46,088 bases of DNA, taken from assembly GCA_002686855.1 (NCBI GenBank), contig NYYQ01000007.1:1-46088 (forward strand), in the 5' to 3' direction. The notes below the pieces were generated by a model. The model worked only from the letters and a program-made list of their open reading frames with translations. It was not told the DNA's origin and made no database searches. The stretch comes from Candidatus Woesearchaeota archaeon (GTDB lineage Archaea > Nanobdellota > Nanobdellia > Woesearchaeales > GW2011-AR4). Made by a program: the position numbers and the translations under genes. Shown here one piece after another: positions 983-31,202 of the stretch (position 1 is the stretch's first letter; each line of letters begins with the position of its first letter).

Positions 983-2002
983 ATGGATTATAGAAAATTA
1001 ATAGGATTTAGCAATGGTTCTTTTGTTGTGACTATACCAAAATATTGGGTAGAAAAAAATAAACTAAAAAAAGGAGATAATATCGGGGTTGAAGAGGGCA
1101 GTGATGAGATAATCTTTTATGCAGAAGGCAAAAGCGTAAAAAAAGAAGAAAAATCCATTACTATAAGTATGGATGGTAAAAAGCTGAGCAGGGTAAAAGC
1201 CGAAATAATCACCGCATACCTCAATAATTACCATACAATCGAGATTTTTTCTAAAACTTTGGAAGAGGACGCACCAGTACTTAAAGGCATTTTAAGGAAT
1301 CTTTCAGGAATGGAGATTATTGAGCAGACAAGACAGAGGATTGTGGCAAAAGACCTTATTGATATTAGCAGCATACCCATCAACAGCATCATCAGGAGGG
1401 TAGATTTAATAGCAAGGTCAATGATGGATGATAATTTGTTATGCATAGATAGAAAATGCAATCCAGATAGCATTATCCATAGGGATATGGACATAAATAG
1501 GCTATACTATCTTGGGTTTAGGGTTATAAAAAATATCATGGATAGCCCAAAAAATATGAAGACTCTAAATACTACATCCTGGAATCTTTTAGTTGATAAA
1601 ATAGTTTTAAGGAGGATTGAGGAGCTGGCAGACGCGCAGAAGAGAATGAGCAGTTTGATTGCGGAAGCAGGATTTCAGGGTGGGCTGAGAGAAGAATTTA
1701 AAAGCATAAATAAAGAATTAAAAGAGAGGTTTTGCAAGGTAATGAAGGCATACTATAGCAATGATAAACAAACAGCCCACGATATTCAAGTAACAGGCAA
1801 AGATATTATTGACAGGTGTAACAAATTTTTAGAAAATGCAAGCAAAGTTCCCTGTCATGATTGTAATGTGAAAAAAGGAGCAAAAAAGTCGATTCAGGAA
1901 AGCAATAAAATTGTTGTTTCAACAGCAATTATTGTTGAGCAAACAAAGGCAACCTCTAGCTTTATTAAGCATATTGCAAGAAATGTGTTGAATGTTGACT
2001 AA
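983..2002 (+). CDS. AbrB/SpoVT-domain plus PhoU-like regulator
   Basis: Start moved to ATG 983 (GGGGTGGT SD upstream). The N-terminus MDYRKLIGFSNGSFVVTIPKYWVEKNKLKKGD is an AbrB-type swapped hairpin. The remainder resembles archaeal PhoU-family regulators. The 800-982 extension in the ORF track is low-complexity. Confidence 0.65.
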   Translation: MDYRKLIGFSNGSFVVTIPKYWVEKNKLKKGDNIGVEEGSDEIIFYAEGKSVKKEEKSITISMDGKKLSRVKAEIITAYLNNYHTIEIFSKTLEEDAPVLKGILRNLSGMEIIEQTRQRIVAKDLIDISSIPINSIIRRVDLIARSMMDDNLLCIDRKCNPDSIIHRDMDINRLYYLGFRVIKNIMDSPKNMKTLNTTSWNLLVDKIVLRRIEELADAQKRMSSLIAEAGFQGGLREEFKSINKELKERFCKVMKAYYSNDKQTAHDIQVTGKDIIDRCNKFLENASKVPCHDCNVKKGAKKSIQESNKIVVSTAIIVEQTKATSSFIKHIARNVLNVD

Positions 2003-2208: not shown

Positions 2209-3492
2209 ATGATTATGTCAAAAAACGAAACAAATATCAACTTTTTATTTAAGAGCATATACTCCAAATTAATAGAGTTCTTCTTAGCCAACCCTGACAA
2301 TGAGTTTTATGTGAATGAGATACTGAAAGCTGTAAAAATTTCCCCAAAAGTCTTATGCGATGGCTTAAAAGAGCTTGAAAAAGCGGGAATTTTACTAAGC
2401 GAGAAAAGAGCAAACTCCATTTATTACAGGCTTAATAAGAAAAACGAGATTGTTGGCTCAATTAAAAAGATATTAAAGCCCGCAACATACAAAGATGCTG
2501 GTGTAGACATAGATGCTGCTAACCTCGCAGTAAAAAACATTAAAAAATATGTCAGAGAAACGTATAATCCAAATGTTCTATCAAAAGTCGGCTCTTTTGG
2601 CGGTTTATACCAGTTTGACAAAGAGAATGTTTTAGTTTCCTCAACAGATGGAGTTGGAACAAAACTAAAATTAGCGTTTAAAACAAATAAGCATGATACT
2701 ATTGGCCAGGATTTAGTTAATCATTGTGTTAATGATATATTGGTTACTGGAGCAAAACCCTTATTCTTTTTAGATTACATAGCTTGTGGAAAAGTTAATC
2801 CCAAAGTCATTGAGCAAATAGTGAAAGGCCTTTCCATTGCTTGTAAGGAAAATAATTGTGCATTAGTTGGAGGAGAAATTGCTGAAATGCCCGGATTGTA
2901 CAAAGAAAAGGAATATGACCTTGCAAGTTTTATTGTTGGAAAAGTAAATAAAAACAAAATGATTGACGGTTTAAAAATTAAAAAAGATGATGCGGTAATT
3001 GGATTATCTTCTAATGGGTTGCATACTAATGGTTACTCCTTAGTTTTCAAGGTACTGTTTGACCATGCAAAACTTAATTTAAACCAAAAACCAAAAGGAC
3101 TAAATTGCGCTTTAAAGGAAGAATTAATGAAAGTCCATTTAAGCTATTTTAAGCCTGTAAATGAATTACTAACTAAATTTGAGATTAAGGCAATGGCCCA
3201 CATTACAGGAGGAGGTTTAATTGAAAATATCCCAAGAGTACTTCCTGAAAACTGCTCAGTAGAGTTATATCAGGAAAAATGGAGAATACCCCCCATATTT
3301 GAATTAATCCAGAAACATGGAAACATCCCAAAAGATGAAATGTACAGGACATTTAATATGGGGATTGGCTTTGTATTGATAGTTAATAAAAAATATTCTG
3401 AAAAAATTCTAGCTCAATTAAAAAAATATGATTTTAAATCACAGGTTATTGGGAATGTTATTAGTGGCAATAAGAAAGTGGTGATAAGTTAG
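2209..3492 (+). CDS. purM: wHTH domain fused to phosphoribosylformylglycinamidine cyclo-ligase (AIR synthetase)
   Basis: The PurM core starts near aa 92 ([41 protein letters not shown]). The first ~90 aa are a winged helix ([37 protein letters not shown]). There is no internal start codon before the PurM core. Confidence 0.85.
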
Positions 3493-7278: not shown

Positions 7279-7821
7279 ATGAGAAGCCAAGAAGATAAAG
7301 TGACAGGATTATTTTTTAATACACCTAAGCACTGGCACTTTGAAGAATTATTGAATAAATCTGGCTTAAGCAGGCCCAGGCTTGCAGTTTGGCTAAAGAA
7401 ATTCATTAAGCAAGGATTAATTAAAAGATTAAAGCCAAAAGGAAAGATGCCTTATTACATTGGAATATCTGAAAATCCTGAATTTCGGAACAGAAAAAGA
7501 TTATTCGCAATAAAAACACTGACCGAATCCGGCTTATTGGACCATTTATCCTCATTAAAGAAAGCAAAAGTTGTAATTATCTTTGGAAGCTTTTCCAGAG
7601 CAGATTGGTATGATGACAGCGATATTGATATTTTTATTTATGGTGATGAAAGCAATTTTGAATATTACAAATATAAGCAAAAATTAAAAAGAGAAATACA
7701 GATTCACAGTGCAAAAACAAAAAAAGATTTAAAAAAAATTGATAAAATGATGCCTTATATAATATCTGGAGATTTTATTAAAGGGTCTATTGAAGAATTA
7801 GGTGTTGAGGTAAATGTTTGA
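7279..7821 (+). CDS. wHTH fused to minimal nucleotidyltransferase (MNT-type)
   Basis: GSFSRADWYDDSDIDIFIYG matches the GSxxRG..SDxD pol-beta NTase motif; N-terminal wHTH (GLSRPRLAVWLKKFIKQGLIKRLKPKGKMPYY). Confidence 0.75.
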   Translation: MRSQEDKVTGLFFNTPKHWHFEELLNKSGLSRPRLAVWLKKFIKQGLIKRLKPKGKMPYYIGISENPEFRNRKRLFAIKTLTESGLLDHLSSLKKAKVVIIFGSFSRADWYDDSDIDIFIYGDESNFEYYKYKQKLKREIQIHSAKTKKDLKKIDKMMPYIISGDFIKGSIEELGVEVNV

Positions 7822-8284
7822 TTTTAAAAATTTGGATGAGGCTTACAACTCATGTGTTGCTGATGGCTTTATAAGAGAAAATCATGAGCATAATAAACAA
7901 AAGTTAAAAGATTTAATAAAAAATGCTGAAACAAACCTTAAAACAGCAAACATACTCATTAAAACATTAAAAAAAGATGATGATGAATGGCTCAATGTTT
8001 ACCTTAATCATTACGAAGCTTTAAGGTTTTATACAGAAGCATTTTTGCGTTATCATTCAGTAAAAATCAATAATCATCAATGCCTATTTGTATATTTATG
8101 TGCAAAATTCCCTGATTTAGAGCTTGACTGGAAATTTTTTGAAACCATAAGGAAGAAAAGAAATAATATTAATTATTATGGTGGCCATGTCAAGTTTGAT
8201 GAATGGAAATCAATAGATTTGCAGATAAAGTTATACATTTCTGCATTAAAGAAAGAGATTGAAACTAAGATTGGAATTTTCTAA
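7814..8284 (+). CDS. HEPN-domain protein (partner of the MNT)
   Basis: 8-nt overlap with the NTase gene; IRKKRNNINYYG resembles the R..RN...Y HEPN motif; helical composition. Confidence 0.6.
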   Translation: MFDFKNLDEAYNSCVADGFIRENHEHNKQKLKDLIKNAETNLKTANILIKTLKKDDDEWLNVYLNHYEALRFYTEAFLRYHSVKINNHQCLFVYLCAKFPDLELDWKFFETIRKKRNNINYYGGHVKFDEWKSIDLQIKLYISALKKEIETKIGIF

Positions 8285-8372
8285 TATAATTTTATCTCCT
8301 TTTAAGTGAGATGGTAACCCTTTAAGAATGAAATATTTAAATACTAGTTGATCAATACTATACTTGATTATT

Positions 8373-8702
8373 ATGGAAACAAAATCACTTTTTATTGAAT
8401 TCATGGGAGACTCGGCTATGATTAGAACATTAGACTACCTTTTAACAGAAAGGGAACTAGATTTTTCAATAACAGATATGGCAGAAAATGCAGGCATAGG
8501 AAGAGCTACCTTATATAGAATTTGGGACAATTTGATTGACAATGAAATCATAGCTCATACCAGAGATATAGGAAAAGCAAAATTATACAAATTAAACAAG
8601 GATAACATCAAAATTAAAAAACTTATGGAAATAGATGATGCATTAATTTTAGAAGAATTGAAGAAACGCTCTGAAAGTCAAAGGGCAAAAGTGATGGCAT
8701 AA
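8373..8702 (+). CDS. small wHTH DNA-binding protein
   Basis: ENAGIGRATLYRIWDNLIDNEIIAHTRDIGKAKLYKLNKDN: helix-turn-helix plus wing; ATG at 8373 preferred to TTG at 8364. Confidence 0.6.
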   Translation: METKSLFIEFMGDSAMIRTLDYLLTERELDFSITDMAENAGIGRATLYRIWDNLIDNEIIAHTRDIGKAKLYKLNKDNIKIKKLMEIDDALILEELKKRSESQRAKVMA

Positions 8703-8715
8703 TTATGTGAAAAAT

Positions 8716-10101
8716 CTATATTTCCAATTCCTTCTTCCAGAACTTACAAGCGCTTTCAGCTTTTTTAGAAGCAATACCCACATATTTCTCAGGATTACTT
8801 ATTATCTCTAATTGCTTTTTATTGAATTTTTTTAAATATGGTTGTAATGATTTTTCCTTTTTTATTATCTCTGTTAATGATTTTTTTGATGATTGAGCTT
8901 TTAATGTCAATTGCCTTACAATTTCATGAGCATCAGGATGCCCTTTTGCAGCTAACAGTATATACAACGGCTCAGCTACAATCAAGCCTTTATTCATATC
9001 AAAATTCTTCCTTAAATTTTCCTTATCAACAACTAAGTTTTTCATTGTTCTATTAAGTCTTGAAACAGATAGATAGAATGCAGTTAAAATTTCAGGAACA
9101 AATCTTAATGAAGCAGAATTAGTTAAATCTCTTTGATGCTCTGATATCTGGTCCATATACAAAGTAACAATGCGCGGCATAAAAGCTTTCCACATGCTCT
9201 TAACATTCTCAAAGTTTATGGGATTCCTCTTCTGGGGCATTGTTGAGCTTCCAACTTGTTTTGCTCCAAAAACTTCTGCAACCTCTAAAATTTCAGACCT
9301 TTGCAAATGCCTCATATCATCAGCTAAATTAGCAATAACTCCAAAACCTTCTACAATAGAATGGATATAGCTGGACATAAACTCTGCTTCTGGGATTTGT
9401 GTGGAAATAGGAGAAGCTTTTAGATTAAGCTCTGAAAGAACATCTCTCTCAAACTCAACAGGATTATTAAAGAACAGAGAGGAAGCATTATAGCTTCCCA
9501 CTGCTCCTGCTATCTTACCTCTTAAATTATTCCCTGTTTTCTTTATCTGAATTATTGACCTTCCAAACCTGGAAACATACTGTGCAAGAGCAAAACCAAA
9601 TGTTATTGGGACAGCATGCTGGCCATGTGTTCTTCCAACCTGCAAGGTATTTTTCTCCTTTAATGCCAACATTATCAATGTTTTTTCAAACTCAATTAAT
9701 TTTGGAATTAAAACATTCTCAGTAAATTTCTTATACCTTGCAGCATCTGCAGTGGCTATTATATCGTGGGATGTTGTGGTGAAATGCACAAAAGGCTTTG
9801 CTTCATCACTTACTTTCCTTTGTATGCAATTAACTAATGCCCTTATATTGTGCTTTAGTTTATCTTCTTCTTGATAAACTTCTTCAGCAGTTATTTTTTT
9901 AGTAGCTTTTTCAACCTCATCCGCAATCTTTTTGCTGCAAACGCCTTTTTTAGCCAAAGTTTTAGTTAAAGCTGCCTCAACCTTAGCCATATACTTAATC
10001 ATTGCATTCTCACTTAGATAAGGCTGCAATTTATGAAAAATGCGCTCATTCCTGCCATAATACCTAAAATCTAATGCGCTTATATTATCAAAAATATTCA
10101 T
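8716..10101 (-). CDS. purB: adenylosuccinate lyase
   Basis: SSTMPQKRNPINFENV signature, lyase-1 family layout, 461 aa. Confidence 0.9.
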   Translation of the reverse strand: MNIFDNISALDFRYYGRNERIFHKLQPYLSENAMIKYMAKVEAALTKTLAKKGVCSKKIADEVEKATKKITAEEVYQEEDKLKHNIRALVNCIQRKVSDEAKPFVHFTTTSHDIIATADAARYKKFTENVLIPKLIEFEKTLIMLALKEKNTLQVGRTHGQHAVPITFGFALAQYVSRFGRSIIQIKKTGNNLRGKIAGAVGSYNASSLFFNNPVEFERDVLSELNLKASPISTQIPEAEFMSSYIHSIVEGFGVIANLADDMRHLQRSEILEVAEVFGAKQVGSSTMPQKRNPINFENVKSMWKAFMPRIVTLYMDQISEHQRDLTNSASLRFVPEILTAFYLSVSRLNRTMKNLVVDKENLRKNFDMNKGLIVAEPLYILLAAKGHPDAHEIVRQLTLKAQSSKKSLTEIIKKEKSLQPYLKKFNKKQLEIISNPEKYVGIASKKAESACKFWKKELEI

Positions 10102-10190: not shown

Positions 10191-10373
10191 TTATCTTATT
10201 TTTTTCCTTGTTTTCCTTATAAGATTATTTTTCTTAAATAATTGGATTGTATTATGGACTTTAGCAGGAGAAATATCTAAATTGCCAGCAATATCCCTTA
10301 TATGCAAACTTTCCTTTGACAATAATTTCAATATTTCGATGTTTTTCTTGGTAAATATCTCTATTAACTCCAT
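10191..10373 (-). CDS. truncated wHTH ORF; probably the N-terminal part of a wHTH-PurB fusion
   Basis: HTH SLHIRDIAGNLDISPAKVHNTIQLFKKNNLI. The ORF stops just after an A7 run (10199-10205), before the wing. The -1 frame is open into the purB ATG. TATA TTTATAAATA lies about 21 nt upstream of the ATG, consistent with a leaderless mRNA. Confidence 0.6.
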   Translation of the reverse strand: MELIEIFTKKNIEILKLLSKESLHIRDIAGNLDISPAKVHNTIQLFKKNNLIRKTRKKIR

Positions 10374-10451
10374 ACTATATAGAAAACGTTCATTATTTAT
10401 AAACTTTTCTATACTTTAAACTATATATTGTTTGTTTTTAGAGAACACTAT

Positions 10452-12614: not shown

Positions 12615-13586
12615 TTAAGAAATTAGTCCTTTACCCTTAAGATTATTTTCAATTCTTTCAGAAACATCCCCCACTTCTGCCTTGAATTCCTGACCGGTTA
12701 TCATTTCATAAAGCTGTATGTATCTTTTGCTTAGTTCCACAACCAGTTCTTCAGGCGCATCAGGAAGCACTTTATCTTTGTAAGGATCACAATTTTCCTT
12801 AAACCACAATCTTAGAAATTCTTTATCAATATTTTCAGGTTCTTCTCCCTTGGCAAATTTTTCTTCATGACTTTTCTTGATCCAAAATCTGGAGCTATCC
12901 GGAGTGTGTATCTCGTCTATAAGGTATATTTCTCCATTCTCATCATAGCCAAACTCATACTTTGTATCAACAAGAATTAAGCCATTTTTTGCTGCAATTT
13001 CTTCTCCTCTTTGAAATAGCTCCAATGCTTTTTCTGCCACAAAATCCCATTGCTCCTGAGTCATCCTCCCAGATTTTACAATCTCATCAGGACTTATCTT
13101 TTCATCATGCTCATCATCTTTTGTAGTTGGAGTTAGAATAGGCTCCTCAAATTTTTGGTTTTTCTTTAAGCCTTCAGGCAAGGTTATTCCGCAGAAATCT
13201 CTCTCCCCCTTTTCGTACGCAGTCCAGGCACTGGTGCTGGTTACTCCTGTTATATATCCTCTGACTACTACTTCAACAGGAAATACATTAAGTTTTTTGC
13301 ACTCAACAGTATTTGGGTCAGGAGAAGAAATTACATGATTTTTGACTATGTCTTTAGTATTTTCAAACCAGAATAAGCTTGTTTGTGTAAGAACCTGGCC
13401 TTTGAATGGAATGTTTGCTAAGTTCCTGTCAAATGCGCTTTGCCTGTCTGTTGCAATCAGAAATAGTTTATCATTCTTAACATATACATCCCTTACCTTG
13501 CCCTTTATTTTATTACCCAATCCTTGGATATCTGTCCCTTTAATTGCAAACTTTATTTGTTTTTTAATCTCTTCATCAGATACCAT
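12615..13586 (-). CDS. purC: SAICAR synthetase (long form)
   Basis: GKVRDVY, ATDRQSAFDR, LILVDTKYEFG motifs. Confidence 0.9.
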   Translation of the reverse strand: MVSDEEIKKQIKFAIKGTDIQGLGNKIKGKVRDVYVKNDKLFLIATDRQSAFDRNLANIPFKGQVLTQTSLFWFENTKDIVKNHVISSPDPNTVECKKLNVFPVEVVVRGYITGVTSTSAWTAYEKGERDFCGITLPEGLKKNQKFEEPILTPTTKDDEHDEKISPDEIVKSGRMTQEQWDFVAEKALELFQRGEEIAAKNGLILVDTKYEFGYDENGEIYLIDEIHTPDSSRFWIKKSHEEKFAKGEEPENIDKEFLRLWFKENCDPYKDKVLPDAPEELVVELSKRYIQLYEMITGQEFKAEVGDVSERIENNLKGKGLIS

Positions 13587-13621
13587 TTTTATCGCGCTTT
13601 TTATTTTTTTAATTCGCTAGA

Positions 13622-13663
13622 AAATCCTTTGGATTTCCTGTGTCCCGAAAATCTTTGATTTTC
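13622..13663. promoter_or_regulatory. two adjacent palindromes upstream of purC (candidate operator)
   Basis: AAATCC-TTT-GGATTT (13622-13636) and GAAAATC-TTT-GATTTTC (13647-13663), plus GGATTTTT half-site at 13672-13679. Confidence 0.4.
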
Positions 13664-13691: not shown

Positions 13692-14459
13692 CTATTTATT
13701 GTTTTTAATTATCTTATCCCTTTGCTCCCTCCTATAACTAACTAATTTCCCCTCATAACTATTATCAATATTCAATATCTCTATAGCAGCCAGAGCAGCA
13801 TTTACGCCATTATTCAAGCCAACCCATAAACCATGGTCAGAATGCTTTAATAAATTAAGGGATGCTTCTGCCCTGTCATCCTTATCAGGCAATAAAGGAC
13901 AATAAATAACCAGCTGTTTTTTCTTTTCTATAGGCTCATCAAATTTGGTAAAAAATATGTTCACACCATCATCAACAATTTGCTCAGCATGCGAATGATT
14001 TACCTTAAATTGTCTTAAGATTTCTTCTGCTTTCTTGAATGCCTTATTGTTTTTATCCCCTACTAAAACTACCTTTTCATGTTTTTTAAGCATATTAATT
14101 GCAGAATAAGCTGCTGCATCTCCTTTCTCAACTCCAACTCCTAAAACAGGAACACCAGGAGGCATCTGCATTATTGTAAGCAGAGCATCTAAGCCTTGGT
14201 AATTTCCAGAGCAGGGAACACCTATTACAGGCCTTAATGTTTTCGATGCGACAACTCCAGGCAAAGCTGCTGCAAGACCTGCACCAGATATAATAACTTT
14301 ATAATCCTGCCTTAAGATATCATCAACATCCTCTGGGCTTTTATGAGCACTGGATAACTTAAAATCATAGCTTACCTTTTCCTTGTCTAAAATCTTAAGA
14401 ATATTCTTATAGCTTTTTTCATCAGATTTTGAAGCAAACAAAACTAAAATATCTTTCAT
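13692..14459 (-). CDS. purE: PurE-like (N5-)CAIR mutase with extra degenerate C-terminal half
   Basis: SSAHKSPEDV and GAGLAAALPGVVASKTLRPVIGVPC motifs in the first ~150 aa; about 100 additional aa resembling a degraded second PurE repeat; start trimmed to ATG 14459. Confidence 0.8.
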   Translation of the reverse strand: MKDILVLFASKSDEKSYKNILKILDKEKVSYDFKLSSAHKSPEDVDDILRQDYKVIISGAGLAAALPGVVASKTLRPVIGVPCSGNYQGLDALLTIMQMPPGVPVLGVGVEKGDAAAYSAINMLKKHEKVVLVGDKNNKAFKKAEEILRQFKVNHSHAEQIVDDGVNIFFTKFDEPIEKKKQLVIYCPLLPDKDDRAEASLNLLKHSDHGLWVGLNNGVNAALAAIEILNIDNSYEGKLVSYRREQRDKIIKNNK

Positions 14460-14469
14460 AAAAACCAAC

Positions 14470-14925
14470 CTACAATATCTTATATCTTTGATAATTTTCA
14501 TTCATTAATAAGTCTTTTGCAATATTAATTGCTCTGCCTTCCTTATCAATCTCAGAATCAAAATACATTGTCCATATGATTCCCTTTTCCAATTTTTTAA
14601 TATTTTTAAAATTCAATCTTTCTTTCAACATGTTCAACAACTCATTATCCTTTTCCAAATTTTCTATTAAAATATTTATTTTATTTCCTTGTTCATTGTT
14701 CTCTAATAAAAATGAAAATTTATTTTTATTGGCATTAACCAGGACATCCACTTTACCTATTTTCTTCTCAAAGCTTTTTTTATCCCCTGAAAATCCAAAT
14801 TTATAGTAATCTTGCTTTTCCAGATTCTTTAGATGATGATAGCCCATCCTATGCAGTGTATGAAATGCTGTTATAGCTACATTATCCGGAACTTTCAAAC
14901 TGACAAATAATTCTGTTATTGGCAT
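14470..14925 (-). CDS. purS: double-length PurS-like protein
   Basis: Position in the purL-purQ cluster; VSLKVPDNVAITAFHTLHRMGY and C-terminal LLMNENYQRYKIL resemble PurS; about twice normal PurS length. Confidence 0.5.
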   Translation of the reverse strand: MPITELFVSLKVPDNVAITAFHTLHRMGYHHLKNLEKQDYYKFGFSGDKKSFEKKIGKVDVLVNANKNKFSFLLENNEQGNKINILIENLEKDNELLNMLKERLNFKNIKKLEKGIIWTMYFDSEIDKEGRAINIAKDLLMNENYQRYKIL

Positions 14926-15134: not shown

Positions 15135-15908
15135 CTATTTATTTTTAATAATATATCTTTTCATAGACTCAAAAATCCTGATATTATTTGTTTTTTGATC
15201 TGTTTTTTTGCTTCCAGGAATTTGCCTTTTCCAGATAGCACGTTCAGGATGTGGCATCATAGCCATAATATTCCCTTCTTTACTGCAAATAGCAGCTATA
15301 TTCAGCATAGAGCCATTTGGGTTTGTTGGAAACTTATCCTCAATTTTCCCTTCTTCATTGCAATACTGAAAAATAATTTGTTTATTTTTTATTAATTGCT
15401 TAACTAAAGCTTTATCCTTTGTTACAAATCTTCCCTCTCCATGCGCAATTGGCAATTTTAAAACTTCATTTTTATCTAAATCAGTAAAAGCAGCTCTTTT
15501 TTTATTCTGAATACTTTTAATATTGACCCAAACATTATAATAACCGGAAACAAAAGGATTTTTATTAGGAGCCAAAGCAAACTCAACCTTATCCTTTAAG
15601 CCAGGAACCATCCCCGTTTCCACTAAAACTTGGGCGCCATTGCATATTCCCAAAACTGGCTTTCCTTTTCTTGATTCTTCTTTAATTATATTCATGACAG
15701 GATCTTTTGCTGCTATAACTCCTGCCCTTATCCTGTCCTCATAAGCCCATCCACCCGGAATTACATAGCCATCAAAATCCGATAAATATTCTTTAGTATT
15801 CCACCTAAGGATTTTGCCATCCATTCCAGCAGCTTTTACAGCTTCTAAAGTTTCCACTTCGCAATTATTCCCGGGAAAGTATATGACTGCTATATTTGGT
15901 TTTGTCAT
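15135..15908 (-). CDS. purQ: FGAM synthase glutaminase subunit
   Basis: VLGICNGAQVL catalytic Cys, AHGEGRF, MPHPER motifs. Confidence 0.9.
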   Translation of the reverse strand: MTKPNIAVIYFPGNNCEVETLEAVKAAGMDGKILRWNTKEYLSDFDGYVIPGGWAYEDRIRAGVIAAKDPVMNIIKEESRKGKPVLGICNGAQVLVETGMVPGLKDKVEFALAPNKNPFVSGYYNVWVNIKSIQNKKRAAFTDLDKNEVLKLPIAHGEGRFVTKDKALVKQLIKNKQIIFQYCNEEGKIEDKFPTNPNGSMLNIAAICSKEGNIMAMMPHPERAIWKRQIPGSKKTDQKTNNIRIFESMKRYIIKNK

Positions 15909-16737: not shown

Positions 16738-19077
16738 TTAACTCAAAACCTCCGCAAAACCACTTGTCCAAGGCCTTTTTATTTCATTTATTTTCAAATC
16801 AATTATTTTATCATCATTTTTTTTAATTGTTAATGTTTTTTTATTGGTTGTTTTTCCCAATTGAATCATTTCAATATTATGTTTTTTGAAAATATTCTTT
16901 ACTTTATTCACATTCTTATTTTCAACTTCAAAAACAAAACCAGAGCTTTCTGAAAACAAAGCCTTGTCATTCCTTAAATTGCTAAAACCAATATCAATCT
17001 CAACTCCAATAGTGCCATCAGCATTTCCCCCTAAAATCATCTCAGAAACTGTTGCAACTAAACCACCATCGCTTATATCATGGCAGCTTAATAACAAGCC
17101 TTTATCAACAGAATCAATAACAGCATAAATCATATTTTTTTCTTTTTGAAAATCAATTTTTGGGACATTTTTTCCAACCTGTTTATTAATATCATAATAA
17201 ACACTTCCACCTAATTCGTCTTTTCTTTCTCCAACCAAGAATAAAGCGCTGTTTTCTTTTTTTAGCTTCATTGTTATAGCTTTGGAATAATCATCCATAA
17301 CTCCAACACAAGCTATTATCGGGCTTGGATCAATTGCCTTTCCCTTATTACTCTCATTATAAAAACTAACATTTCCTGAGACAATAGGAACTGGATTTTT
17401 TGTTTTGTAATAGTTAATTTTGCTGGCAGCATCTTTGATTCCCCTAACTGCTTCTTTAAAGTCATAGAACTCCTCTGGTTTTTCAGGATTTCCAAAGCAT
17501 AAGCAATCAGTTAAAGCAGAAGGTATAGCGCCAATAGCTGCTATATTACGCATAGATTCTGCAACAGCATTTACAGCTCCTAAGTAAGGGTCAATCCTCC
17601 CATATTTTGGATTGTTATCAACAGCTAAAGCAATTCCATACTTGCCTTTTGCTTTAATTAATCCAGCATCTGCTTGTCCAGGCTCTATAATGCCAGTGCC
17701 CATAACATTTTTATCATAATGATTAAAGCACTTTGCTTTTGAAGCAACAGCAGGGTTTGAAAGAACTTTCAACAAAACATCATTGTAATCTTTTTTTTCT
17801 TTTATAATTGGCTCCTTAAAATTCCTTTTTGGTTTTTTAGCTGCCCTGTCATAACTTATTCCAGAAGTTACAGCTTTAATTGGAGCATTACAAACAACCT
17901 GGCCTTTGTGCTTAACAACATAATTTTTTTCATCTGTCACTTGCCCAATTACAACGGCTCTTGCATTCTTTGCAATATTAGATAATTCAAAATCCTTATT
18001 GTATATTTTCAATATAGTTGGAGTAAATTCCTTTGGACTTATCCAGGTAAATCTTTCTTGTGTCTCAGAACATGCTATGATATATGACGGTAAATCTTTC
18101 ATAGAAACATGCACATTATCCAAATCAAGCTCGCAACCATAATCTGCCGCACTACACAACTCAGAACTAGCGCACATTATGCCACCAGCTCCCATATCCT
18201 TAAATCCTAACCCCACATTTTGTTTTTTAGCCTCATTAAAAACCTCATAAGTTGCTCTAATTAAAACATTTTTTAAAAAAGGATCTGGCACTTGCACTGC
18301 ACCTCTGTTGCTTTCTTCTGCTTCTTCATCTAAAATTAAGGATGCGAAAGCAGCCCCTCCAAAACCAGAATTATCTGTAGGTTTTCCGACAATTATGATG
18401 TCATAGCCATCAGCATTCTTTGGAGCATAACTATGGATAATATCTTTCTCTTTCAAAATACCTAAACAAACAACATTTACCAGACAATTATCATCAAAGC
18501 TTTCATTAAAATAAACATCTCCAGCTAGATTTGGTATACCGACAGCATTTCCATAGCCTGCTATGCCATCAATAACCTCATTTGCAATATACTTTACCTT
18601 GTTTTTATTCTTTCCATCAGGATTTCCAAATCTTAATGGGTCTGCAGTACCAATAATCTTCGCTCCCATGCACAGAACATCTCTAAGAATTCCTCCAATG
18701 CCGGTAGCAGCCCCTTCATACGGCACAACCTGGCTAGGGTGGTTATGGCTTTCGTGGCTCATAACTATACCGTACTTTTCTCCATCTATTGTTCCTAACT
18801 CAACAACACCAGAATCTTCTATTGGCCCTAAAATAACATTGGGTGCTTTAGTTGGCAAAGTTTTAAGCACTTTTCTAGAGCTTTTATATGAACTATGCTC
18901 TGACCATTGTATGTTAAAAATATTCAGCTCTGTTAAGGTTGGATTTCTGCCGATTAACTTTACTATCTTTTTTGCCTCATTTGTTTTCAGAGAAATAGCA
19001 TTTTTCTTCAGAAAATCCTGCAGCATTCTATTTGACATGCCTTTTACATCAACCAGCTCTGTATCAACCATCCCCAT
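16738..19077 (-). CDS. purL: FGAM synthase II (small PurL)
   Basis: QWSEHSSYKSS, ESHNHPS, 779 aa AIR-synthase-related duplicated architecture. Confidence 0.9.
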   Translation of the reverse strand: MGMVDTELVDVKGMSNRMLQDFLKKNAISLKTNEAKKIVKLIGRNPTLTELNIFNIQWSEHSSYKSSRKVLKTLPTKAPNVILGPIEDSGVVELGTIDGEKYGIVMSHESHNHPSQVVPYEGAATGIGGILRDVLCMGAKIIGTADPLRFGNPDGKNKNKVKYIANEVIDGIAGYGNAVGIPNLAGDVYFNESFDDNCLVNVVCLGILKEKDIIHSYAPKNADGYDIIIVGKPTDNSGFGGAAFASLILDEEAEESNRGAVQVPDPFLKNVLIRATYEVFNEAKKQNVGLGFKDMGAGGIMCASSELCSAADYGCELDLDNVHVSMKDLPSYIIACSETQERFTWISPKEFTPTILKIYNKDFELSNIAKNARAVVIGQVTDEKNYVVKHKGQVVCNAPIKAVTSGISYDRAAKKPKRNFKEPIIKEKKDYNDVLLKVLSNPAVASKAKCFNHYDKNVMGTGIIEPGQADAGLIKAKGKYGIALAVDNNPKYGRIDPYLGAVNAVAESMRNIAAIGAIPSALTDCLCFGNPEKPEEFYDFKEAVRGIKDAASKINYYKTKNPVPIVSGNVSFYNESNKGKAIDPSPIIACVGVMDDYSKAITMKLKKENSALFLVGERKDELGGSVYYDINKQVGKNVPKIDFQKEKNMIYAVIDSVDKGLLLSCHDISDGGLVATVSEMILGGNADGTIGVEIDIGFSNLRNDKALFSESSGFVFEVENKNVNKVKNIFKKHNIEMIQLGKTTNKKTLTIKKNDDKIIDLKINEIKRPWTSGFAEVLS

Positions 19078-19635: not shown

Positions 19636-21336
19636 ATGTGTAGTATTTGCGGGGTGTATATTTTACATAAAGAAGGGTTGCCAGATATAGCCGCTGCTCT
19701 TGAGACTTTAGGTCTTGAAAGAGAAGTAGCAGAAAAAATTGTAGAGAATGGTTCAGTAGCAGCAAGTGTTTTAGATTTTCATCTTTGTAATTCAACAAAT
19801 AGGGGTTATGATAGTTCTGGTATTGTTACTTTTGATGGACAAAGTAATCAAACTCATAGAGATTTGGGTTCTGCTGAAGAAGTATATCACCATGATGATC
19901 CTGAGAAACATAGAAAAACATTAGAACAACTTGTTGGAAATATAGCCATAGGCCAGAATAGATACAGGACTTCTGGAATTATAGACACAGATAGTGTACA
20001 ACCTTTTGAACCAATAGATGGAATAACTATAGCGCATAATGGGAATATTGTGAATCAAATTGATTTAAGAAGATTTTTTAGCGACCCATTTGTACAAAAA
20101 AAAGTCCCTTTACTTTCAACATCTGATAGCGAATTAATCAGAAATAGCTTGGTAGCATCTTATGGTTCAAAAATTCCAATTGATGAACTTGTAAGAAAGG
20201 CAATGATCGAAGATAGAGAATTTATAGGAGCATATTCAGTTGTCGCACTTATAAGAGACCAATTAATAGCTTTTAGAGATCCAAGGGCCTATTGGCCTTT
20301 GCATATGGCAAGATTAGGAAATTTAATTATTTTTAATTCTGAAGTTACTCCAATTCAAGAATTTATTAGAGCAACTGATTATAAGTTACGTAGATCTGAT
20401 TTTTTAAGATCTGTTGAAAGAGGAGATATAGAAACTGTTTCTAACCGCACTATTACAACTTATACTAGAGCCCTGATGGAAGATGGAGTTGAAGTTAAGA
20501 AAAGGAGATGTACTATGGACTATATTTATCTTTTAATGCATAAAAACGAGCTTGTTATGCATTTTAGGAAAAGGTCTGGAGAGATTTTATGGGAACATTA
20601 TGGTTTAAGTGGAGATAAAGAAGAATTTGTTGTTTCTCCTGTACCTCAATCAGGGACTTTTTATGCACATGGCATAAGAGATGCTTCTGGTCTTCATTAT
20701 AAAAGAATAATAGAAAAAAGATCTAAAACCCATAAAGCATTTCTTGCAGCAACTCCTGAAGAAAGATTAGCAATGAAAGAAAAAAAATATAGGTTAAGGG
20801 AAACTTACAAGGGAATGAAAGTCATGCTTACTGATGATAGTGTTGTAAGGAATGATACATTATATTTTTTAATTAAGAAAATGAGGTTAAAAGAAGTTGA
20901 AGAATTACACCTCAGAATCGGATCTCCACCCATAAAGACTCCATGTTATAATGGTATGAGTACTCCAACTCGAAATGAATTACTTGCTCACCATCTAAAT
21001 AGGGGCCAGATTGAAATGTATTTTGAATCTATATTTTATGGGGCAGATTATGATAGAGACACTATAATTTCAAAAATAAAAAAAGGGAAAACTGTTGAAA
21101 ATATTGTCCAAGATAGTGTTATTGATAATCAAAACTATCTTAAAGACCCTAAAATGAGAGAAGTAGAAAAAGGAAAATTTAGCTTAAAATATAATACATT
21201 AAAGATGCTGAAAAGTGCGTTTAAAAGAGCAGACTTAAACCCAGATACAAGATGCTATGCTTGTATGATGCCAGGATGGAGCGGATATCCTAATAAATTT
21301 AAGCCTTATTTATCTGGGTTGAGTAAGGCTGCATAG
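19636..21336 (+). CDS. purF: divergent amidophosphoribosyltransferase
   Basis: N-terminal MC (Ntn Cys), NRYRTSG..QPF, IAHNGNIVN, SDSE, PRT loop VMLTDDSVVRNDT, LRIGSPPIKTPCYNGM, C-terminal CYACMMPGWSGYP; has insertions and is G+C-richer. Confidence 0.7.
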   Translation: MCSICGVYILHKEGLPDIAAALETLGLEREVAEKIVENGSVAASVLDFHLCNSTNRGYDSSGIVTFDGQSNQTHRDLGSAEEVYHHDDPEKHRKTLEQLVGNIAIGQNRYRTSGIIDTDSVQPFEPIDGITIAHNGNIVNQIDLRRFFSDPFVQKKVPLLSTSDSELIRNSLVASYGSKIPIDELVRKAMIEDREFIGAYSVVALIRDQLIAFRDPRAYWPLHMARLGNLIIFNSEVTPIQEFIRATDYKLRRSDFLRSVERGDIETVSNRTITTYTRALMEDGVEVKKRRCTMDYIYLLMHKNELVMHFRKRSGEILWEHYGLSGDKEEFVVSPVPQSGTFYAHGIRDASGLHYKRIIEKRSKTHKAFLAATPEERLAMKEKKYRLRETYKGMKVMLTDDSVVRNDTLYFLIKKMRLKEVEELHLRIGSPPIKTPCYNGMSTPTRNELLAHHLNRGQIEMYFESIFYGADYDRDTIISKIKKGKTVENIVQDSVIDNQNYLKDPKMREVEKGKFSLKYNTLKMLKSAFKRADLNPDTRCYACMMPGWSGYPNKFKPYLSGLSKAA

Positions 21337-21400: not shown

Positions 21401-21919
21401 ATGGAAAGAGAAGCTATTACATTACCAAAATTAACTATAGATCAATTAGTAGAATTAGGAGCCGACCATGATAGTATGGTTACTCCCACTAGTAGTATCT
21501 ATGAAATTGATCCACTAGCAACACAACTAGGAACTAGAATTAAGGAAAAACTTAGTGATGGAACAATACAAGACAGAAAAAGACTCCTAAGAGTACTTCC
21601 AAGAATAGCTAATGAAGTGATTCAAAATGCAATTGAACATGGTAATGAGTTAGATCCTTCAAAACAAATTCATGCTTATTTTCTTTGGCAAGAGCATGGT
21701 TCTGGTAATGCATTGATGTATATTGCTGTACAAGATGAAGGCAAAGGCTTTGATGTAAATAGATATAGACTAAAAAATCCTAAACATGGTGGAGAAGCGC
21801 TGCCTTGGGCAAGAGAAATGTTTGATCATATTTATAATTTTGGAGATCCTGCAGTTTACATGGCTCAAGTCATAAGAAGAGATGGTGCAAAACCAATTGT
21901 AGTGGAAAAAGGTAGCTAA
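21401..21919 (+). CDS. stand-alone GHKL/HATPase_c-like protein (anti-sigma-factor-kinase-like)
   Basis: N-box EVIQNAIEHGN and G1-like VQDEGKGFD; TATA TTTATAAAGG about 25 nt before ATG 21401. Confidence 0.5.
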   Translation: MEREAITLPKLTIDQLVELGADHDSMVTPTSSIYEIDPLATQLGTRIKEKLSDGTIQDRKRLLRVLPRIANEVIQNAIEHGNELDPSKQIHAYFLWQEHGSGNALMYIAVQDEGKGFDVNRYRLKNPKHGGEALPWAREMFDHIYNFGDPAVYMAQVIRRDGAKPIVVEKGS

Positions 21920-23108
21920 ATAACCTCCCCAACCAGATAAATAGAGCCAGCAACAACAACTAAATCTCTTTTCCCTGCATTTTTTTTTGCATATTCTAAA
22001 GCTTTTTTTGAATTTTTAATAATAATTGAATTTTTAAAATATTTTTTTATATCTTTTATTTTGGCTGCTCTTTCATTATTTGCTTCTGTCAATATAATTT
22101 TATCCGCTTTTATTATCTTTGATATAGCTTTAACATCTTTATCTTTAGAAAAACCCAAAACCGCAATTAACTTATTGTATCTTAGATTTTTTAATTCATG
22201 AAATAAACCCCTAAATCCAGCTGGATTATGGGCAACATCAATCAACACATTCTTCCTCAATTCAAACCTTCCAGGCCATTTTACATTCTTTAATCCATTT
22301 TTTATATCCTTTTTATTAATTTTAATTCTTTTATTTTCATTTAGAATTTCCAATGCTTTTATTGCAATTGCTGCATTTATTAATTGAAAATTTCCTTTCA
22401 GGCCTGATTTTATATTTTCATCATTGTTTTTTTCATTTATTGATGTTTTTTCATTTTTTAATGGCGCCATTATTCTTGAATTTTTTTTAATGGCTATTTT
22501 TTTATTGTTTTCAAAGCAACACCTTTTGCTCCTGTTACAACCGGAACATTATTTTTTATTATTCCTGCTTTCTCATAGGCAATCTTTCTTAAACTATTGC
22601 CTAAAAACTTCTTATGCTCATGCGCAACATTGGTTATGATTGAAATCAACGGTCTAATAACATTAGTCGAGTCCAGTCTTCCACCCATTCCCGTCTCCAA
22701 AACAACAAAATCAACCTTTTTATCATAAAAATAAAGAAACATCATAGAGGTTGTTATCTCAAAAAAACTTTGGTTTGTAGCATGTTTTTTAACTTTAAGA
22801 TAATATTCAACTATCTCTTTGTCAGTAATTAATTTATCATTTATCCTGATCCTTTCATTGAATTTCTTTAAATGGGGGCTTGTATACATCCCAACATTAT
22901 ATCCAGCCTCTTGCAGTATAGAAGAGATCATAGCGCAAACAGAACCCTTTCCATTAGTCCCAGCAACATGAATGTACTTTAGCTTTTTTTCTGGATTGCC
23001 TAATTTCTTAAGAAGTAACTTCATATTTTTTAATCCTAATTTAAACTTCCATTCAGGCATACCATAAAGTTCTTCCAACACTTTGTTATAGTTCATAAGG
23101 AAAAGCAA
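21916..23108 (-). pseudogene. folC: folylpolyglutamate/dihydrofolate synthase interrupted by a frameshift at an A7 run
   Basis: N-part 22494..23108 (HVAGTNGKGSV P-loop), C-part 21916..22470 (NFQLINAAIAIKALEIL, PGRFE). One extra A in the run at 22497-22503 gives a continuous ...TIKKIAIKKNSRIMAPLK... Confidence 0.75.
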
Positions 23109-30417: not shown

Positions 30418-30590
30418 TTGGTTTCACCTCCAAAGTATTTTTTTATTATGTTGCCTATAATTGGCATTGATAATCAACTAATTGATTGCCAACTATATAA
30501 ATGTTTCGGTCATTGATTATCAATAATAGTAATCTTTATATATAACCAATGGTTGTGTACTCTCTATTGCCATATCAGGAGTATAATAAG

Positions 30591-31202
30591 ATGTTTAACC
30601 GGGAAACTCAGAATAAAATAATCGATTTCATTAAGACAAGCCCAATAGGAGTTACTTCTACTGAAATTGCAAAATCAATTGGTCTTAACCGCATGACCAT
30701 GACAAAATACCTTGCAATTATTAAAGAAAAGGCCCTAATTGACTTTAAACAGTTTGGAATGTCTAAATTGTGGTATATTCCAGTAAATCTCAGCAAAGAG
30801 AGCTTTTTAAGCAAAATAATGGATTATATGGCTAAAAATTTGCCTAAAGAACAGCTTAAAGGCATTTCAGAGAAGGTTGGAATAAGCCTTGGAGAAGAGA
30901 TTAATAAGATGTATCTGCAGTTTTATGGCGCTAAAAAATTAAGTTTTGACCAGATATGCAGTACATATGAAGAAATTGGAAAAAAGCTAGGCGGCAATTT
31001 TAAAATAACTTCACAACCAGAAAAGATCTCTGTAGAGATTACACAGTCACCATTTGAAGAGAAAAATATACTGATAATGAATAAAATACTATCTGCGGTT
31101 TTTACAAAGATAGCTTCCTTAAACTTAGGTTATGCTCGCGCTTTAGTTTCAGAGCCAGAAAAAGAAGAAAATGCCGTTATCGAAGTGTTTTTGAAGAAGT
31201 GA
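30591..31202 (+). CDS. wHTH transcriptional regulator with C-terminal sensor-like domain
   Basis: VTSTEIAKSIGLNRMTMTKYLAIIKEKALI HTH; ATG 30591 (AGGAG upstream) preferred, 30549 possible. Confidence 0.55.
   Translation: MFNRETQNKIIDFIKTSPIGVTSTEIAKSIGLNRMTMTKYLAIIKEKALIDFKQFGMSKLWYIPVNLSKESFLSKIMDYMAKNLPKEQLKGISEKVGISLGEEINKMYLQFYGAKKLSFDQICSTYEEIGKKLGGNFKITSQPEKISVEITQSPFEEKNILIMNKILSAVFTKIASLNLGYARALVSEPEKEENAVIEVFLKK

Follow-up and report, generated by a model that had tools for sequence, protein, structure and literature searches.

A winged helix-turn-helix domain fused to PurM in Woesearchaeota: a candidate trigger enzyme of purine synthesis

Introduction

Why should an enzyme of de novo purine synthesis carry a domain of a DNA-binding type at its N terminus? 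The question is raised by the purM gene of a Candidatus Woesearchaeota archaeon, which lies in a stretch of 46,088 nucleotides (contig NYYQ01000007.1, hereafter the window). A preliminary description, made from the letters of this DNA, proposed that the beginning of the purM ORF encodes a winged helix-turn-helix (wHTH), that this is a genuine fusion and that, together with a probable wHTH-PurB, it makes the purine enzymes of this lineage DNA-binding proteins in the style of trigger enzymes. As far as we know, the control of purine synthesis in archaea is little understood; for DPANN archaea, a group that cannot be grown on its own, hardly anything is known of gene regulation. Nor do we know of earlier trigger enzymes for de novo purine synthesis, or of any experimentally approachable pathway regulator described in DPANN archaea. 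The literature searched for this fusion, or for pur regulation in these archaea, contains no description of wHTH-PurM or wHTH-PurB, in keeping with the impression of the preliminary description that the PurM fusion had not been reported.

Domain architecture of the fused PurM

The ORF at 2209-3492 (+) encodes 427 aa, of which the N-terminal ~90-92 residues, including the peptide quoted in the preliminary description, form the wHTH. A linker of four residues separates this ArsR/SmtB-type domain from a full-length PurM. The two parts are:

2215-2484, + strand: ArsR/SmtB-like wHTH of 90 aa, with the order alpha1-alpha2-alpha3-alpha4-wing-alpha5 (from sequence, fold and dN/dS)
2485-3492, + strand: complete, bacterial-like PurM (FGAM cyclo-ligase) core with stop codon (from TIGR00878, Foldseek and phmmer)

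TIGR00878 matches residues 93-419 over positions 2-331 of its 332 (E=1e-119; 399.7 bits, above the equivalog cut-off of 236.35), and the Pfam families AIRS (E=1e-25) and AIRS_C (E=1e-29) are found in the C-terminal part, while a Pfam search of the fused PurM detects no Pribosyltran domain. In Foldseek, the core aligns with the solved PurMs of E. coli, Geobacillus and B. anthracis among the structures 1cli, 2z01, 2btu and 5vk4 (E ~1e-43, TM(target) 0.94, rmsd 1.5-1.9 A, 42-50% identity), and phmmer scores it at 350 bits against the B. anthracis enzyme and ~200 bits against that of Pyrococcus. The core is presumably active and would convert FGAM and ATP to AIR, judging from its score against the equivalog model, from residues that it has invariantly in common with unfused PurMs and from the pur-gene context.

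The N-terminal domain is a wHTH of the ArsR/SmtB type, as the preliminary description had recognised in more general terms. Domain searches with the N-terminus return ArsR/SmtB-type matches, all of them below the family thresholds (NF033788, E=9e-8, 31.8 bits against a cut-off of 55; PF01022, E=0.017, 15.4 bits against a cut-off of 22), and a profile built from 10 orthologous N-termini retrieves HlyU from the PDB (E=3.8e-4). The AlphaFold2 model of the full-length protein (pLDDT 92; ~88-91 for residues 21-80) gives the N-terminus a winged-helix topology, H5-14, H16-27, E32-34, H35-42, H46-58, E62-67, E70-75 and H80-89. Modelled in isolation, the domain matches HlyU, AF1382, AntR, a NolR-DNA complex, SmtB, CzrA and BigR over its whole ~90 residues (84-95 columns; TM 0.65-0.73; Foldseek probability 1.0). 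Together, topology and matches provide the helices, the alpha4 recognition helix, the beta hairpin wing and the alpha5 of the ArsR/SmtB fold.

The topology alpha1-alpha2-alpha3-alpha4-beta-beta-alpha5 is common to this domain and to HlyU, SmtB, CzrA, BigR and NolR, and its recognition-helix motif, S-P-x-x-L-x-x-x-L-K-x-L-x-x-x-G-(I/L)-L, resembles that of ArsR. Conserved residues include P44, L47, C48, L51, K52, K64, A66, N67, Y70 and Y71, and the wing tip has an invariant basic K-(R/K)-A-N. Unlike the ArsR/SmtB proteins, which are free-standing dimers of ~100 aa, this domain is attached to an enzyme; it falls below the family cut-offs and lacks the metal or Cys-pair sites. Since its 90 residues include no His and one Cys only (C48, in the recognition helix), neither alpha3N/alpha5 metal sites nor a Cys pair can be formed. 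Outside the fusion, its nearest sequence relatives are wHTH-MNT proteins (E from 1e-20 to 1e-8), the wHTH of archaeal HEPN-MNT modules, in which the wHTH accompanies a Pol-beta-type nucleotidyltransferase instead of a metabolic enzyme. Free-standing homologues of 88-94 aa (41-48% identical) also exist. DNA binding is a putative function of the domain. Its basic pI (9.0-9.5) was dropped as evidence for this function, as the PurM core is equally basic.

Start codon, promoter and continuity of the fusion

The ORF begins at 2209, as the preliminary description had it, but the conserved start is its second ATG, at 2215 (MSKNE), since the ATG at 2209 is replaced by ATT or ATA in several relatives. 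Upstream of it lie the following elements:

2184-2191, + strand: TATA box TTTAAATA in the promoter of wHTH-purM, with an A-rich BRE-like stretch before it; TTTAWATA is invariant at -31 to -24 from ATG 2215 in 14 distinct loci
2192-2214, + strand: TATA-to-ATG spacer of 23 bp, TCATTTCATATTATCACATGATT, a candidate operator by its conservation across related loci
2149-2188, + strand: 18-nt inverted repeat TTAAAGTTCTCGAAATTT / AAATTCCGATAACTTTAA, which overlaps the BRE and the TATA box and is specific to the window

The distance from the TATA box to ATG 2215 corresponds to the geometry of a leaderless mRNA, from which it follows that the wHTH must be translated; it is probably the 5' end of a leaderless purM message. 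The same layout (TATA, 22-23 nt, ATG) is present at the Lrp-like, wHTH-MNT and purB-wHTH genes of the window.

That wHTH and PurM form one polypeptide, and that the fusion is real, is borne out by the ORF itself, which is unbroken in 17 independently assembled loci and in 50 protein clusters, from assemblies drawn from NCBI, ENA, JGI, Logan and Tara. It might still be argued that the fusion is an artefact of annotation or assembly, with two separate proteins or a translation start further downstream. NCBI annotates a PurM of 338 aa in one relative (P0047), a Met stands four residues ahead of the core in some relatives (KKVMKPITYKD), and the contig contains at least one frameshifted gene (purB). 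Against this, the locus of P0047 (L007) holds a continuous fused ORF of 424 aa, the promoter is placed for the ATG of the wHTH, and the window sequence offers neither a Shine-Dalgarno sequence before the core nor a canonical start codon between the core and a GTG at 2311 (codon 35). This GTG was overlooked in the preliminary description, which had stated that no in-frame GTG precedes the core, but it is not conserved (GTC, GTT or GTA in 7 of 13 loci) and does not affect the conclusion that the fusion is genuine. With loci, codons and promoter all opposing it, an artefact is hardly credible. For every fused PurM among the matches listed, precomputed Pfam annotation reports only AIRS and AIRS_C and misses the wHTH. 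Such fusions are likely under-counted, because routine annotation misses the domain and NCBI shortens some genes to the core.

A conserved block in the purM promoter

The spacer is more conserved than the DNA upstream of it: its mean pairwise identity is 0.73, compared with 0.32 at -70 to -40 and 0.50 at third codon positions, with the consensus.CATT.CataTT.t.ACATgAT. across loci. A relaxed 18-nt form of this consensus has its sole exact match in the window at the 2192-2214 spacer itself; matches with two mismatches are at chance level, as are those upstream of the other pur genes of the window. Within the window the element is confined to the promoter of purM, so that at most autoregulation is supported, and not a pur regulon. 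Its dyad symmetry is weak and limited to ATCAT-N13-ATGAT in some loci.

The first eight nucleotides of the spacer (TCAkTTCA) recur in free-standing wHTH homologues (L059, L060), directly behind their TATA box, and the TCAGTTCA element stands immediately 3' of TATA in two of three such homologues. Its position there suggests that the fusion inherited the promoter of a self-regulated wHTH gene. Two further candidates around this promoter were rejected. The 18-nt inverted repeat is not the conserved element: the closest relative (L025) and most loci have no palindrome there, and L006 alone has one at an equal position. Co-variation of recognition-helix residue K/Q45 with CATTTC/CATTAC follows the phylogeny and is uninformative.

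Nucleotide conservation does not stop at the start codon but extends into the first ~12 coding nucleotides (ATGTCAaAAAaT). Regulators related to enzymes can act on RNA, as those of the PyrR type do, and the domain could likewise bind RNA, notably at the 5' end of the leaderless mRNA that encodes it, so as to autoregulate translation. The conserved coding nucleotides would fit such a role, as would the MSKNE/SQSE residues, which the model leaves disordered although they are conserved in the free-standing homologues too, where the codons at this place make TTCAC-AAA-GTGAA palindromes that repeat a promoter element. However, transcription is predicted to start downstream of most of the conserved block, which would be absent from the RNA to that extent, and all structural neighbours of the domain bind dsDNA, which makes RNA binding an improbable explanation.

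Distribution and selection

A survey of PurM architectures found the wHTH-PurM fusion in 50 of the best 120 PurM homologues (Woesearchaeota/Nanoarchaeota); eight GTDB species representatives carry it. By its dN/dS (0.03-0.12, compared with 0.06-0.14 for the PurM core), the wHTH is under strong purifying selection, at a level as low as that of the catalytic core. This, together with the presence of the domain in so many homologues, excludes a chance extension of the ORF, and with the unbroken ORFs and the leaderless promoter it upholds the earlier claim of a genuine translational fusion. In two loci (L005, L028), the wHTH (65-67% identical) and its promoter are kept, but on a different PurM core with no more than ~30% identity. 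Among unfused PurMs, the closest (68-69% identical) are encoded in tight pur operons, purQ-purN-purM-purEC and purLQ-purM-purE-purC-purB, and the PurB encoded there (460 aa) is also unfused.

These data bear on the view that the domain is a non-specific DNA or nucleoid tether, or a near-neutral leftover of a fusion event with no regulatory role. The domain is basic and shows a weak similarity to Sul12a, a chromatin-organising wHTH in NCBIfam (E=0.028), and the window revealed no regulon. Against this view stand a dN/dS no higher than that of the enzyme core, the retention of the domain while the core was replaced and the conservation of a specific promoter block; it is considered improbable.

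A second fusion: wHTH-PurB

The probable wHTH-PurB of the preliminary description is confirmed for the lineage, and in the window it is split by a deletion of one nucleotide. The features concerned are:

10191-10373, - strand: wHTH ORF ahead of purB, truncated to 60 aa; it corresponds to the N-terminal domain of wHTH-PurB in the lineage and is broken by a 1-nt deletion at 10215-10223
8716-10101, - strand: PurB (adenylosuccinate lyase) core, annotated as 461 aa (Pfam Lyase_1, ASL_C, ADSL_C), in frame with the wHTH after one base is added
10396-10403, - strand: TATA box TTTATAAA of wHTH-purB, 22 nt before ATG 10373, in a conserved block

Adding one base upstream of purB yields a repaired protein of 552 aa, and 119 of its best 120 homologues have a wHTH of their own; nearly all of them measure 549-556 aa, with 70-82% identity and 100% coverage for nearly all. 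The repaired wHTH reaches 27.9 bits with Pfam PF25212 HVO_A0114, just above the cut-off of 27.6, and hhalign relates it to the wHTH of PurM (E=2.7e-5 over 75 columns). Its promoter, also of the leaderless kind, has a different block, aaaaGTTTATAAATAAtrAAC, conserved in this window and in L025, L053, L055 and L062. The Met at the start of the PurB core was considered as a compensation for the frameshift and rejected, as many intact fused relatives also have it. A folC-like gene of the window is split as well, at 22470-22494.

Two enzymes of the same pathway with distantly related domains of equal topology invite another reading, namely that the wHTH is a protein-protein or oligomerisation module by which the N-terminal domains of PurM and PurB pair through alpha1/alpha5 into a purine metabolon, or by which the quaternary state is altered. 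Both ArsR dimerisation helices, alpha1 and alpha5, are complete, the recognition helix (LCDGLKEL) contains an invariant Cys and an acidic residue, Cys-Asp, at positions that in many ArsR proteins are taken by Ser, Gln or His, and a dyad-symmetric operator was not found at the purM promoter. On the other hand, the nearest relatives in sequence and structure are DNA-binding regulators and wHTH-MNT modules, the basic wing tip is invariant, the free-standing homologues adjoin unrelated genes, and the conserved non-coding spacer is left unexplained. The counts of fused homologues, 119 for PurB and 50 for PurM among the best 120 of each, hint that the PurB fusions are more widespread than the PurM fusions, and thus at unpaired cases. 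A pairing module is accordingly regarded as rather unlikely, if somewhat less so than the alternatives above.

Proposed mechanism and comparison with known systems

Given a conserved domain of a DNA-binding type at their front ends, PurM and PurB probably regulate their own genes. The reading that we favour, to which we give about an even chance, is that wHTH-PurM combines enzyme and regulator in the manner of trigger enzymes and binds the block in its own promoter in a ligand-coupled way. Dimerisation of PurM would present two wHTH domains, and the pair would bind the conserved block over the transcription start of its own gene; a block overlapping the transcription start is the usual position for archaeal repressors. 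Occupancy of the active site by ATP, FGAM or AIR would alter the affinity for DNA by way of the rigid, short connection to PurM's N-terminal segment. The monocistronic purM would thereby gain feedback control of its own, and wHTH-PurB would do likewise at its own, different promoter block.

Several known regulators join a wHTH to a domain with an enzyme fold. In Bacillus subtilis, PurR combines a wHTH with a PRT-like domain, senses PRPP and controls the pur genes. Haloferax GfcR likewise has a wHTH and a phosphoribosyltransferase-like domain (PMC10838023). Both resemble wHTH-PurM in this union, and in PurR the enzyme-fold domain senses a purine-pathway metabolite; their effector part is, however, a catalytically inactive PRT fold, whereas the partner in wHTH-PurM is a full PurM above the equivalog cut-off.

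Closer in design is RbkR, an archaeal protein with an N-terminal wHTH and a riboflavin kinase, for which DNA binding and a regulon have been demonstrated (PMC5397151). RbkR and wHTH-PurM both place an archaeal N-terminal wHTH on a complete biosynthetic enzyme of the pathway thought to be controlled, both have enzyme-only versions in other lineages, and in both the operators vary by lineage. They differ in the enzyme, a PurM with the ATP-grasp-unrelated AIRS fold instead of a CTP-dependent riboflavin kinase, in the wHTH family and in reach, since wHTH-PurM has just a conserved block in its own promoter where RbkR has a regulon. BirA, NadR and PutA are trigger enzymes (Commichau and Stulke 2008, as cited in PMC5397151). 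They combine, in one chain, a domain that binds DNA with an active enzyme, and the ligand state of the enzyme couples metabolism to transcription, which for wHTH-PurM is a proposal; they belong to the biotin, NAD and proline pathways, have other DNA-binding domains and were characterised in bacteria. A single polypeptide that unites a DNA-binding-type domain with a complete enzyme gives wHTH-PurM the architecture that marks a trigger enzyme, and it would add a further case, not described for PurM or PurB.

How the architecture arose can be outlined tentatively. It is possible that a pur operon was broken up and that PurM and PurB each gained a wHTH with its self-regulated leaderless promoter, becoming metabolite-sensing transcription factors. 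Co-regulation may in this way survive the fragmentation of an operon, when an orphaned gene captures a small, possibly self-regulated wHTH gene along with its promoter. If the reading is true, the wHTH architecture was important enough to outlast the replacement of the PurM catalytic core, and PurM and PurB would be two directly testable regulators, small enough for expression in E. coli, with candidate operators within 23 bp.

Other wHTH genes and the pur palindromes of the window

With phmmer, no other copy of the PurM N-terminal domain is found among the ORFs of the window; a family HMM, in contrast, reveals the wHTH upstream of purB, a free-standing one at 8364-8702 and a copy in a wHTH-MNT gene at 7279-7821. 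The free-standing gene was rejected as a conserved neighbour of purB, for no homologue of it was found in the other pur loci. Rfam and tRNA scans of the window gave no matches.

Palindromes upstream of purC had been put forward in the preliminary description (13622-13663) as possible operators shared by pur genes:

13620-13663, no strand assigned: two palindromes, GAAAATCC-ttt-GGATTTCC and GAAAATC-ttt-GATTTTC, upstream of purC, a candidate 'pur box' of the lineage

The proposal holds in part: the motif recurs near pur genes in related genomes, but the purM promoter has no good copy, and one copy occurs in a genome whose fetched pur operon has an unfused purM and purB. For these two reasons, the palindromes cannot be assigned to the fused wHTH domains. 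Perfect GGAAATC/GATTTCC palindromes stand upstream of purM (L006), purB (L061) and purP (L061), and GGAAATC-N2-5-GATTTCC has 34 matches in 331 kb (window and related loci), whereas 50 shuffles averaged 8.1 matches and never exceeded 14.

A winged helix domain at the N-terminus of PurM

[quoted passage not shown] Its sequence places the protein in the PurM family, since the equivalog model TIGR00878 matches residues 93-419 with 399.7 bits (cut-off 236), and the corresponding NCBI entry (100% identity) is named simply phosphoribosylformylglycinamidine cyclo-ligase. When modelled, the core resembles solved bacterial PurMs with a TM of 0.94 at 42-50% identity.

Domain searches with the first ~92 residues returned winged-helix regulators only, although every match was sub-threshold: NF033788 ArsR/SmtB (E=9e-8), followed by HTH_5, PaaX, HxlR and Rrf2. 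The domain is missed altogether by precomputed Pfam annotation, and a profile of ten orthologous N-termini matches HlyU in the PDB (E=3.8e-4). An AlphaFold2 model built from a 78-sequence alignment (overall pLDDT 92) gives the topology α1 5-14, α2 16-27, β 32-34, α3 35-42, α4 46-58, β-hairpin wing 62-75 and α5 80-89. Modelled alone, the domain has full-length structural matches in HlyU, AF1382, AntR, a NolR-DNA complex, SmtB, CzrA and BigR (TM 0.65-0.73). The model topology and these matches to regulators bear out the preliminary description, which had read a wHTH in the first ~90 aa; according to the model, the domain is a real winged helix and, more exactly, an ArsR/SmtB-type fold. It shares this fold with the ArsR/SmtB family but fails the family sequence cut-offs and, with zero His and one Cys, lacks the metal and thiol sensor sites.

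Evidence that the fusion is genuine

The fusion is genuine according to five lines of evidence, namely ORF continuity, homologues, selection, the shortened annotation of a relative and promoter position, and an annotation or assembly artefact is extremely improbable. Neither a stop codon nor a canonical start occurs from codon 36 to the PurM core. The preliminary description had also considered the fusion genuine, as the ORF, its conservation and the promoter confirm, but its statement that no in-frame ATG, GTG or TTG precedes the core overlooked a GTG at codon 35, where 7 of 13 relatives have GTC, GTT or GTA. Of the best 120 PurM homologues, 50 carry the wHTH. Complete fused homologues measure 410-446 aa, with identity down to 52%, and come from assemblies held at NCBI, ENA, JGI, Logan and Tara; at the DNA level, the fusion is present in eight species representatives of GTDB and in nine more metagenome loci. 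The dN/dS ratio is 0.03-0.12 for the wHTH, compared with 0.06-0.14 for the catalytic core, and it is very unlikely that the domain is a non-specific tether or a neutral relic.

In the related locus L007 (5995-7269), NCBI annotates protein P0047 as a 338-aa PurM starting at an internal Met, whereas the ORF really has 424 aa and includes the wHTH. As this case illustrates, homology-guided start calling conceals the fusion in public records. In full-text literature searches for the fusion, neither wHTH-PurM nor wHTH-PurB was found described, in line with the earlier impression that the PurM fusion was new; the fusion is real, conserved and apparently undescribed.

Origin and spread of the domain

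Searched exhaustively with a profile, the PurM wHTH has 524 relatives at E<=1e-3. Ten were sampled for Pfam domains: four, of ~190 aa, combine a wHTH with a minimal nucleotidyltransferase (MNT), and two carry fused PEP-utilising enzyme domains. Among the closest matches are free-standing proteins of 88-94 aa (41-48% identity), whose genes lie beside unrelated neighbours, so the domain is an autonomous, mobile module.

Two independently assembled related loci, L005 (6001-7350) and L028 (992-2383), carry the same wHTH (65-67% identity), linker and promoter on a PurM core with just ~30% identity, so the architecture was kept while the catalytic core was replaced. This other core scores 203 bits with TIGR00878, below the cut-off, and is about as far from one solved PurM as from any other, whereas that of the window is clearly bacterial-like (350 bits with the enzyme of B. 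anthracis).

The closest unfused PurMs (core identity 68-69%) are encoded in compact operons (purQ-purN-purM-purEC...purB; purSL-purQ-purM-purE-HAD-purC-purB) with an ordinary 460-aa PurB. In contrast, the purine genes are scattered in the window, which is a complete contig of 46,088 bp (32% G+C) from a Candidatus Woesearchaeota / Nanoarchaeota metagenome-assembled genome and includes archaeal housekeeping genes (S19e, L31e, FtsZ, Lhr helicase).

Purine genes in the window
2215-3492, + strand, purM
8716-10101, - strand, purB
12615-13586, - strand, purC
13692-14501, - strand, purE (269 aa)
14470-14925, - strand, purS (151 aa)
15135-15908, - strand, purQ
16738-19077, - strand, purL
19636-21336, + strand, purF

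PurE has a C-terminal extension of ~125 aa and PurS is about twice its usual length; both resemble an internal duplication or an extra domain.

Other genes of the window encode similar domains. A wHTH-MNT gene (7279-7821, +), whose wHTH and that of PurM fall within one broad family (local HMM E=2e-5), overlaps a gene at 7814-8284 (+) for a 156-aa product with no Pfam match, and together they resemble a toxin-antitoxin pair of the HEPN-MNT type. The PurM-domain family also has a free-standing wHTH member of 112 aa (8364-8702, +; local HMM E=2.5e-7), which is arranged tail-to-tail with purB, a position in which no homologue was found in the other loci. Finally, a 217-aa protein (30549-31202, +) represents a further wHTH fusion, in which residues 14-81 weakly match the family (local HMM E=0.007) and MetOD1, a 'methanogen output domain', comes next.

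The purM promoter and a possible regulatory role

A TATA box (TTTAWATA) invariably occupies positions -31 to -24 relative to ATG 2215 (MSKNE) in 14 distinct loci, and the ATG further upstream, at 2209, lacks conservation; the promoter is hence directed at the start codon of the wHTH. Archaeal TATA boxes are centred ~26-27 nt from the transcription start, which would place the start at or beside ATG 2215 and implies a leaderless mRNA. The layout of TATA box, 22-23 nt and ATG is also found at other genes of the window. Binding of the wHTH to the leaderless mRNA of its own gene has a low probability, similar to that of a tether or relic.

The 23-bp spacer between TATA box and ATG (consensus.CATT.CataTT.t.ACATgAT.) has a mean identity of 73%, compared with 32% for the -70 to -40 region and 50% for third codon positions. 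The block shows little dyad symmetry and is absent elsewhere in the window. Its first 8 nt (TCAkTTCA) also directly follow the TATA box in two of three free-standing wHTH homologues examined. As a 15-nt pattern, TATA box and element match at the promoter position in 14 purM loci and at the free-standing gene of related locus L059, and also in four unrelated bacterial loci. This common element is consistent with a self-regulated wHTH gene having passed on its promoter and operator to the fusion.

A block overlapping the transcription start is a typical archaeal repressor site. The PurM dimer could present two wHTH domains to this block, and a ligand in the active site might signal to them via the 4-residue link into the N-terminal segment of PurM. 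The chances that wHTH-PurM is such a bifunctional enzyme-regulator are about even, while a protein-protein or metabolon role of the wHTH is rather unlikely. By analogy, wHTH-PurM, with its predicted function, would join a known kind of enzyme-regulator: RbkR, BirA, NadR and PutA likewise combine an enzyme with a DNA-binding domain (PMC5397151). A looser likeness, a wHTH joined to an enzyme-fold sensor, exists with Haloferax GfcR (PMC10838023). Bacillus PurR has the same arrangement. As it has no PRT domain, wHTH-PurM is not a PurR/GfcR member.

Upstream of purM, a gene at 983-2002 (+) encodes an AbrB/MazE-like N-terminal domain and a long helical domain that is PhoU-like by eye; Pfam matches only the MazE_antitoxin part. 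By tblastn, a homologue adjoins purM in eight other loci (L004, L008, L009, L025, L026, L030, L031, L032) and lies ~3.8 kb upstream in L027. Between this gene and the purM promoter, a 60-nt G+C-rich hairpin (2086-2145, +; dG -26.8 kcal/mol, z = -4.5), the only one of its kind in the window and lacking an Rfam match, is possibly a terminator or a small RNA.

A second fusion, wHTH-PurB

A family HMM of the PurM domain detected a 60-codon wHTH ORF (10373-10191, -) directly upstream of purB. If one base is added, this ORF continues in frame into PurB, and the repaired 552-aa protein matches 119 of 120 listed homologues at 70-82% identity, with 100% coverage for nearly all; these are single wHTH-PurB proteins, nearly all of 549-556 aa. 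The probable wHTH-PurB of the preliminary description is therefore correct for the lineage, but in the window the gene is broken by a 1-nt deletion, which alignment with the closest relative locates at 10215-10223 (CTTA-TAAGG). There is no long homopolymer at the site, and either a genuine mutation or faulty assembly may account for the split. The repaired wHTH passes Pfam PF25212 and is related to that of PurM (hhalign E=2.7e-5, 17% identity), with a common topology and different recognition helices. The purB promoter is conserved and leaderless (TTTATAAA, then 22 nt, then ATG).

A candidate pur box

The palindromes at 13620-13663, upstream of purC, belong to the motif GGAAATC-N2-5-GATTTCC, which is enriched in the window and related loci: it matches 34 times, whereas 50 shuffles gave 8.1 matches on average and never more than 14. 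The copies upstream of purM (L006), purB and purP (both L061) are perfect, as is one at the junction of purE and purC in L057, whose fetched pur operon has unfused purM and purB.

Palindrome copies in related loci
L006, 5948-5963
L061, 395-436, 5953-5969 and 10291-10340
L057, 3410-3428

The motif is a good candidate for a pur box, the operator of a purine regulon. The preliminary description had pointed to the palindromes as an example of operators that pur genes might share; the motif does recur at pur genes of relatives, but the purM promoter of the window has only a degenerate copy (2157-2180). A one-mismatch copy (8205-8222) lies ~145 nt upstream of the free-standing wHTH gene at 8364-8702.

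The palindrome also recurs beside a folC/Mur-ligase-like gene. In the window, this gene is split, with separate ORFs for its M domain and its C domain (21916-22470 and 22494-23108, - strand), and is the second broken gene of the contig besides purB. Its L061 counterpart is a single ORF, 404 aa or longer, and two perfect copies in L061 lie at the junction that matches the split.
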